Position numbers and translations under genes: made by a program
Notes under the pieces: generated by a model
Databases searched by the model: none
What the model saw: only the letters and a program-made list of their open reading frames with translations
What the model was told of the DNA's origin: nothing
Shown: positions 1 through 679 of the stretch, piece by piece
How the letters are laid out: each line of letters starts with the position of its first letter
Numbering within the stretch: the first letter of the stretch is position 1
DNA from: Escherichia coli
GTDB lineage: Bacteria; Pseudomonadota; Gammaproteobacteria; Enterobacterales; Enterobacteriaceae
DNA length: 679 bases
Assembly (NCBI RefSeq): GCF_003334335.1
Contig: NZ_QOWQ01000159.1
Strand: one strand, 5' to 3'

Positions 1-501
1 AATCTGAGCCGGGTTCGTAAAAACGCCATTCCGGCGGCTTCAGCAATGACGATTAACCGCGTGGCCACAACGGCGATTAATCAGTCTTCGTCACAGGTTG
101 CCCGGGAAACCAGGGTGAGACGGAAACTGGTAAAGGAACGGTCCAGACTGAAACGGGCGACGGTCAGAAATCCGAATGCCAGAATTATCGTTAACCGCGG
201 TGATCTCCCTGTGATTAAGCTGGGGATCAGGATGCTGGGGCGTCGCCCGAACAGCATACTTAAAGCCGGTCAGCATCGGTATCAGCGGGCATTTATTCAG
301 CGATTAAAAAATGGTCGCTGGCATGTCATGCAGCGTGTGGCCGGGAAAAACCGTTACCCCATTGATGTGGTGAAAATCCCGATGGCGGCCCCACTGAAAC
401 AGGCATTTGATGAGAATGTTGACCGTATCCGGCGTGAACGCCTGCCTAAAGAACTGGCATACGCGCTGAAACAACAACTGAGGATTGCAATAAAACGATG
501 A
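1..501 (+). CDS. Z: Phage tail completion protein, lambda gpZ-like; 5'-partial (start upstream of window), stop TGA at 499-501
   Basis: Frame 1 is open from base 1, translating NLSRVRKNAIPAASA before the Met at 46, so the ORF-track start at 46 is an internal Met. The translation (…MTINRVATTAINQSSSQVARETRVRRKLVKERSRLKRATVRNPNARIIVNRGDLPVIKLG…AFIQRLKNGRWHVMQRVAGKNRYPIDVVKIPMAAPLKQAFDENVDRIRRERLPKELAYALKQQLRIAIKR) closely matches my recollection of lambda gpZ (…AMAINRVASSAISQSASQVARETKVRRKLVKERARLKRATVKNPQARIKVNRGDLPVIKLG…AFIQQLKNGRWHVMQRVAGKNRYPIDVVKIPMA…RIRRERLPKEL…). It is strongly basic (R/K-rich), as gpZ is, and sits immediately upstream of a gpU-like gene as in lambda. Identity is recalled from memory, not searched. 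Confidence 0.85.
   Translation, partial: NLSRVRKNAIPAASAMTINRVATTAINQSSSQVARETRVRRKLVKERSRLKRATVRNPNARIIVNRGDLPVIKLGIRMLGRRPNSILKAGQHRYQRAFIQRLKNGRWHVMQRVAGKNRYPIDVVKIPMAAPLKQAFDENVDRIRRERLPKELAYALKQQLRIAIKR
480..484 (+). promoter_or_regulatory. Possible Shine-Dalgarno (GAGGA) for the U-like gene, inside the 3' end of the Z-like gene
   Basis: GAGGA at 480-484 lies 13 nt upstream of the ATG at 498. That spacing is longer than optimal, so initiation may rely mainly on coupling to the terminating ribosome of the upstream gene. Confidence 0.3.
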
Positions 502-679
502 AACACACTGACATTCGTGCCGCAGTGCTGGATGCACTCGAGCAGCATGAACACGGGGCGACGCTGTTTGATGGTCGCCCCGTTGTTTTTGACGAAGAGG
601 ATTTTCCTGCGATCGCGGTTTATCTGACGGATGCAGAGTATACCGGTGAAGAGCTGGATGCAGATACCTGGCGGGCCAC
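498..679 (+). CDS. U: Phage tail terminator protein (minor tail protein), lambda gpU-like; 3'-partial (continues beyond window)
   Basis: ATG at 498-500 opens frame 3, which has no stop through 679. This ORF is missing from the supplied track, presumably because it runs off the window. Translation: MKHTDIRAAVLDALEQHEHGATLFDGRPVVFDEEDFPAIAVYLTDAEYTGEELDADTWRA. This closely matches the N-terminus of lambda gpU as I recall it (MKHTELRAAVLDALEKHDTGATFFDGRPAVFDEADFPAVAVYLTGAEYTGEELDSDTWQA…). The position directly after the Z-like gene matches lambda gene order Z-U-V. Confidence 0.88.
   Translation, partial: MKHTDIRAAVLDALEQHEHGATLFDGRPVVFDEEDFPAIAVYLTDAEYTGEELDADTWRA

Follow-up and report, generated by a model that had tools for sequence, protein, structure and literature searches.

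The 679-nucleotide window of Escherichia coli DNA analysed here carries gene Z, which encodes a tail completion protein related to gpZ of phage lambda, and the start of the neighbouring gene U. A first-pass annotation had pointed to a stretch in the middle of Z, at positions 217-300, as divergent from lambda gpZ and possibly different in length. We conclude, with a probability of roughly 85%, that the window encodes a short-loop allele of gpZ, in which the tip of a predicted hairpin is trimmed, that this allele belongs to an old class that is subject to recombination, and that Z of the window would be a normal, functional protein. The feature itself is ordinary: the allele was already on deposit, its protein family is known, and loop-length variation together with fine-scale lambdoid recombination accounts for it. 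All 679 bases are identical (100%) to Escherichia phage PhiR5_1 (PV340545.1, 33712-34390), where the corresponding stretch is annotated as 'tail component protein Z' and 'tail component protein U'. Unless stated otherwise, coordinates refer to the window and to its plus strand.

Lambda gpZ is longer than Z of the window by 15 amino acids (45 nt), and the whole of this difference falls inside the central segment (K84-Q111, 217-300), where lambda has 13 lysines and arginines and the window 7. Lambda is therefore both longer and more basic here, as annotated. The divergence itself was placed a little too broadly: the edges of the segment, KLG (217-225) and AFIQ (289-300), are conserved with lambda, and what diverges is a core at about 226-288. 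This cassette, I87-R107, measures 63 nt compared to 108 nt in lambda and shares 48% nucleotide identity with it where the two can be aligned. At the protein level, 7 of 21 aligned residues are identical to lambda across the cassette as opposed to 124 of 156 elsewhere (Fisher p = 3e-5), so that the description of Z as otherwise conserved (79% identity outside the cassette) holds; at the nucleotide level, identity is 30/63 for positions 226-288 and 372/471 for the remainder of Z. Megablast matches to lambda-type phages begin at position 286.

There are a number of ways in which such a pattern might come about. The annotation had named three candidates: a mosaic junction, a compensated frameshift and a clean in-frame indel, of which only the first survives, as a mosaic cassette. 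In the frameshift scenario, ancestral DNA would be read in a different frame between two offsetting indels. It is true that the central peptide seems unrelated to lambda at first sight and that the length difference is a multiple of three. However, both alleles have stops in their alternative frames and show no similarity there: translated in +1 and +2, lambda's central stretch scores 20 and 14 against the window peptide, compared to 37 in frame, and the reciprocal test yields scores of 12 and 15. Read in frame, by contrast, the cassette retains the pattern of the family, R-R...S-[IV]-L-x-[AV]-G...[YF]-x-x-A-F-I-Q. Moreover, with nucleotide identity across the cassette at about 48%, there is no common DNA that could have been re-read in another frame, and we give this scenario next to no credence. 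A recent, clean 45-nt deletion from a lambda-type Z, for example by slippage in its CGN/AAR-rich stretch, would be a simpler event, and singleton database proteins do show loop events of this kind (P0038, P0043, P0045 and P0049, along with duplications in P0002 and P0053). Yet the alignment calls for at least two gaps, the site in the window is not bordered by direct repeats, and the positions retained (7/21 amino acids and 30/63 nucleotides identical) differ from lambda roughly as much as unrelated sequence would. With divergence extending to the aligned residues on either side of the gaps, one clean indel is excluded. The allele is also old enough to have formed sub-types, IRMLGRRPNSILKAG and IRITGSRPNSTLRAG, and to have spread over 1,652 genomes and into E. 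albertii. We therefore consider a recent deletion highly improbable.

What the cassette contributes to the protein can be approached through AlphaFold2 models of the window allele and of lambda, both built on a 96-sequence family alignment (mean predicted local distance difference test, pLDDT, of 89.9 and 87.7, respectively). Both models contain a helix at residues 6-48, short strands and a C-terminal helix, and segment 217-300 would correspond to a beta-hairpin plus subsequent strands of a small beta-domain between the two long helices of gpZ. In the window model the first arm of the hairpin is the predicted strand IRML (residues 87-90, positions 226-237; lambda counterpart ARVVL, 88-92) and the second arm ILKA (97-100, positions 256-267; lambda counterpart SVLVV, 111-115), joined by a turn of six residues, GRRPNS (91-96, positions 238-255), that is delimited by model and alignment together. 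Two further predicted strands follow at 274-303, HRYQ (103-106), diverged from NRRI in lambda, and the conserved AFIQR (108-112); the subsequent strands of lambda lie at 118-121 and 123-127. At the same tip lambda carries an 18-residue basic loop, SRRRRRKKGQRSSLKGGG (93-110), across which 10-residue blocks average pLDDT values of 58 and 51, with residues 103-107 below 50; judging from the model, this loop is probably disordered. Since the same strand elements recur in both models, the two proteins are predicted to be collinear in fold, sharing one beta-hairpin whose tip is trimmed in the window, with some 13 of the 15 missing residues coming from the tip and 2 from the first arm.

Is it the window or lambda that departs from the rest of the family? 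We aligned 81 full-length family representatives, drawn from 281 matches in 1.84 billion cluster representatives, and considered the spacer between two conserved glycines (G86 and G101 in the window). The shortest spacer has 10 residues, the longest 39 and the median is 17; the window has 14 and lambda 29. On this alignment the spacer is the main length-variable loop of the Pfam family PF06763, with lambda an outlier in the upper tail and the window close to the family median; the one correction to make to the first-pass annotation is that lambda is the unusual one. With spacers of 10-39 residues in the family, the long basic loop, in place of which window Z has GRRPNS, is not family-defining but a trait of lambda and close alleles. 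Lambda is the laboratory reference and its loop is atypically long, so expectations based on lambda mislead in this case. The motifs on either side of the loop (NRGDLPVIKLG ... AFIQ.LKNGRWHVMQR ... RYPIDVVKIP) are identical or near-identical in the window, lambda and phage 2B8. We also observed singleton database proteins with in-frame loop-1 deletions of 16-30 amino acids (P0038, P0043, P0045, P0049) and two others with tandem duplications in loop 1, of 5 amino acids (LGIRM) and 23 amino acids (P0002 and P0053), which would mean either that indels are tolerated in the loop or that the proteins come from prophage copies in decay.

To gauge how common the two forms are, we queried 5,426 complete E. 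coli genomes with window positions 190-310 and with the equivalent lambda stretch. The short allele was found in 1,652 genomes (2,096 places) and the lambda-type allele in 3,498 genomes (4,592 places), counts that are not phylogenetically independent. All best matches have at least 90% nucleotide identity, and identity is at least 95% in 1,368 of 1,656 short and 3,422 of 3,510 lambda-type records. The short allele is also present in E. albertii. On sequence comparison, then, the Z centre of E. coli lambdoid prophages falls into two discrete, major and old allele classes. Nine records among 165 deposited phage genomes with a Z homologue have the short form, namely PhiR5_1, five PhiR12 isolates, phage 204576 and 2B8 (two records). 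For PhiR5_1 and the five PhiR12 isolates the listed host is E. coli C or K-12, and the short allele therefore works in infectious phages; a literature search found no paper on PhiR5_1. An origin in plaque-forming phage and a loop length near the family median would both fit a Z that is normal and functional. One might still suspect an assembly error or the remnant of a defective prophage, given that truncated or fused forms are numerous among the prophage Z genes in databases. However, the reading frame is intact, the Pfam match runs from end to end, identical or near-identical sequence recurs in the nine phage records, and the allele's presence in 1,652 complete genomes is hard to reconcile with artefact or decay, to which we assign a negligible probability.

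How alleles of the centre are distributed over Z backbones speaks to their history. In an informative-site analysis over four Z genes, Z of phage 2B8 has a short centre between lambda-like flanks. The window, in turn, matches P0014, a 191-aa E. coli prophage allele at locus L005, almost everywhere except at 327-366, a patch that agrees with lambda at 10 of 11 informative sites while the flanking sites, 318 and 389, are P0014-type. The association with neighbouring neck genes is loose, too: the short allele adjoins lambda-type FII and U in 2B8 (97% and 99% identity) and also adjoins PhiR5-type FII and U (69% and 79% identity to lambda), so that loop type is not locked to either neck neighbour. 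From these patterns, the central segment behaves as a cassette whose alleles are reshuffled by fine-scale recombination; the conserved sequences on either side (...NRGDLPVIKLG and AFIQ.LKNGRWHVMQ...) would be where homologous recombination transfers alleles from one Z backbone to another. The suggestion of an indel-variable or mosaic region is thus borne out on both counts, by spacers of 10-39 residues in the family and by two discrete alleles in E. coli genomes together with the short centre within the lambda-like flanks of 2B8. In the tail genes of lambdoid phages, neither mosaicism below the level of the gene nor variation in loop length comes as a surprise. We found no non-short family member close to the 23-aa core that might have served as cassette donor, the best local score being 45 and reflecting the family motif only.

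Comparison with relatives places the window more precisely. It resembles lambda gpZ (P03731, PF06763) in its position within FII-Z-U-V, in its ATGA overlap with U, in its identity outside the cassette and in the predicted architecture of two long helices plus a small beta-domain, but is 15 amino acids shorter and differs in its tip (GRRPNS rather than the long loop), in one strand (HRYQ rather than NRRI) and in its lysine and arginine content (7 rather than 13). The 177-aa short-loop relatives with lambda-like flanks, FII and U have the same length and cassette class as the window but carry sub-type IRITGSRPNSTLRAG and represent a different mosaic. The 191-aa E. coli prophage alleles P0014 and P0029 have a backbone nearly identical to that of the window and the same short loop 1, yet contain a second loop that is 42 nt longer and partly basic (LPQARYEEGNDDKGRKKRNRLP) where the window has the VAGKNRYP of lambda.

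What might the variable tip do? Lambda particles lacking gpZ have a normal appearance but an infectivity reduced about 500-fold, and the protein has been proposed to bind a DNA end, letting it insert into the tail. The tail completion protein of phage 80alpha is a neck-lumen monomer whose apex caps the DNA end and whose hairpin joins a sheet with three tape-measure N-termini; for lambda gpZ, an extra beta-domain has been predicted at the apex corresponding to that of 80alpha (PMC11661146). Such an arrangement is known for 80alpha only. By analogy, a gpZ monomer might occupy the neck lumen, with the DNA end on one side and the tape-measure N-termini on the other, and its apical beta-domain and basic loop would face the DNA end or the acidic wall of the lumen, the loop touching DNA phosphates or that wall. 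The length of the loop would then tune this apical contact without being required for it.

Besides the non-independence of the genome counts, several points weigh against the interpretation of the window as a trimmed, functional gpZ acting in this manner. Confidence in the turn itself is moderate, with the block 91-100 averaging a pLDDT of 76, and the direction of change might be either loss in the window allele or gain in lambda. gpZ has been detected in virions yet has not been located in any lambda or Ur-lambda cryo-EM map, and no chain in the PDB is detectably similar in sequence to members of the gpZ family. Placement of the loop near DNA consequently rests on a remote analogue, 80alpha/SaPI1 gp51 (PDB 9mu2 chain P; HK97 gp10 family), which has 12% identity to gpZ, belongs to a different Pfam family and is without the extra apical beta-domain that holds the variable loop of gpZ; in addition, packaging is by the headful mechanism in 80alpha but from cos sites in lambda. 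Finally, the tail completion protein of T5 has been assigned to the tail tip instead, which makes even the location of gpZ uncertain.

A second loop varies in length as well. In the window, loop 2 (V124-P131, VAGKNRYP, 337-360) has the short, lambda-like form, and other E. coli prophage alleles have 42 extra nucleotides here (LPQARYEEGNDDKGRKKRNRLP, at L005:1856-1955). The long form is present in about 450-700 complete E. coli genomes and, in the protein sample, occurs only with a short loop 1 (11 cases versus 0). With a synthetic query that combined the lambda loop 1 with a long loop 2, none of 5,064 places in complete E. coli genomes covered at least 80% of the query. A limit set at the apex by sterics or charge may account for the missing long/long form, but tight linkage may account for it equally well, given that the loops are only about 100 nt apart and that genomes are not independent. 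It is conceivable, if rather unlikely, that the apex of gpZ carries an optional, relocatable basic arm, situated in loop 1 in lambda (RRRRRKK) and in loop 2 in 191-aa alleles (KGRKKRNR); the 177-aa allele of the window has neither long loop. Were such an arm to grip the cos DNA end or the acidic gpU/gpFII lumen, the three architectures would constitute natural variants for the study of gpZ function, and would also show the arm to be dispensable for infectivity. In any case, nature already offers short/short, short/long and long/short alleles with which gpZ could be located and its contacts with the DNA end or the lumen defined.

The absence of the long/long combination bears on a further scenario, in which loop length and charge are adaptively matched to a partner, be it the cos end, the tape-measure N-terminus or a host factor or defence, so that alleles would not be interchangeable. 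Both alleles are at high frequency with little variation within each class, and the 0 of 5,064 places with two long loops hint at a constraint at the apex, as this scenario would have it. Against tight co-adaptation with FII and U, however, the short allele occurs beside both types of these genes and within the lambda-like flanks of 2B8, and loop length drifts widely within the family. Adaptive specialisation of this kind strikes us as unlikely, and we favour a recombining short-loop allele.

Turning to the gene as a whole, frame 1 runs without interruption from base 1 up to the TGA at 499-501, so that Z occupies positions 1-501 with codons 12-177 of a 177-aa protein plus stop and its 5' end lies outside the window. 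The assignment draws on the translation, the PhiR5_1 coding sequence and Pfam: window Z matches PF06763 (Minor_tail_Z) at E = 8.6e-59 (hmmscan) over residues 3-177 and the full length of the profile (model positions 1-190 of 190), and all listed homologues carry PF06763. Gene order in PhiR5_1 is FI-FII-Z-U-V-G-T-H, as it is in lambda and 2B8. Z thus lies between FII/Hc1 (head-tail joining) and U/Tc1 (tail terminator), the gene position of a tail completion protein (TCP / Ne1), and it has the corresponding predicted fold of two long side-by-side helices along with a small beta-sheet.

Other features of the central segment are unremarkable. GC content of 217-300 is 56%, compared to 53% and 50% in the flanks, and a compositional anomaly was rejected on that basis. 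At E <= 1 nothing in Rfam matches, and no site resembling a promoter is present. A lone terminator-like site (minus strand, 36-24) is at chance level, and a hidden non-coding feature under the segment was rejected. The minus-strand open reading frames at 81-257 and 91-276 are purely mechanical.

Gene U, the tail terminator, starts at 498 and runs to the end of the window (498-679), its ATG overlapping the Z stop as ATGA at 498-501. The same overlap is seen in lambda and 2B8, and suggests, from sequence, that translation of Z and U is coupled. Within U, a perfect 10-bp inverted repeat is present at 553-562 and 574-583 (ACGGGGCGAC ... GTCGCCCCGT, with an 11-nt spacer). The inner 8-9 bp of its arms are also found in lambda U, and the repeat may simply reflect the coding sequence (GATLFDGRP).
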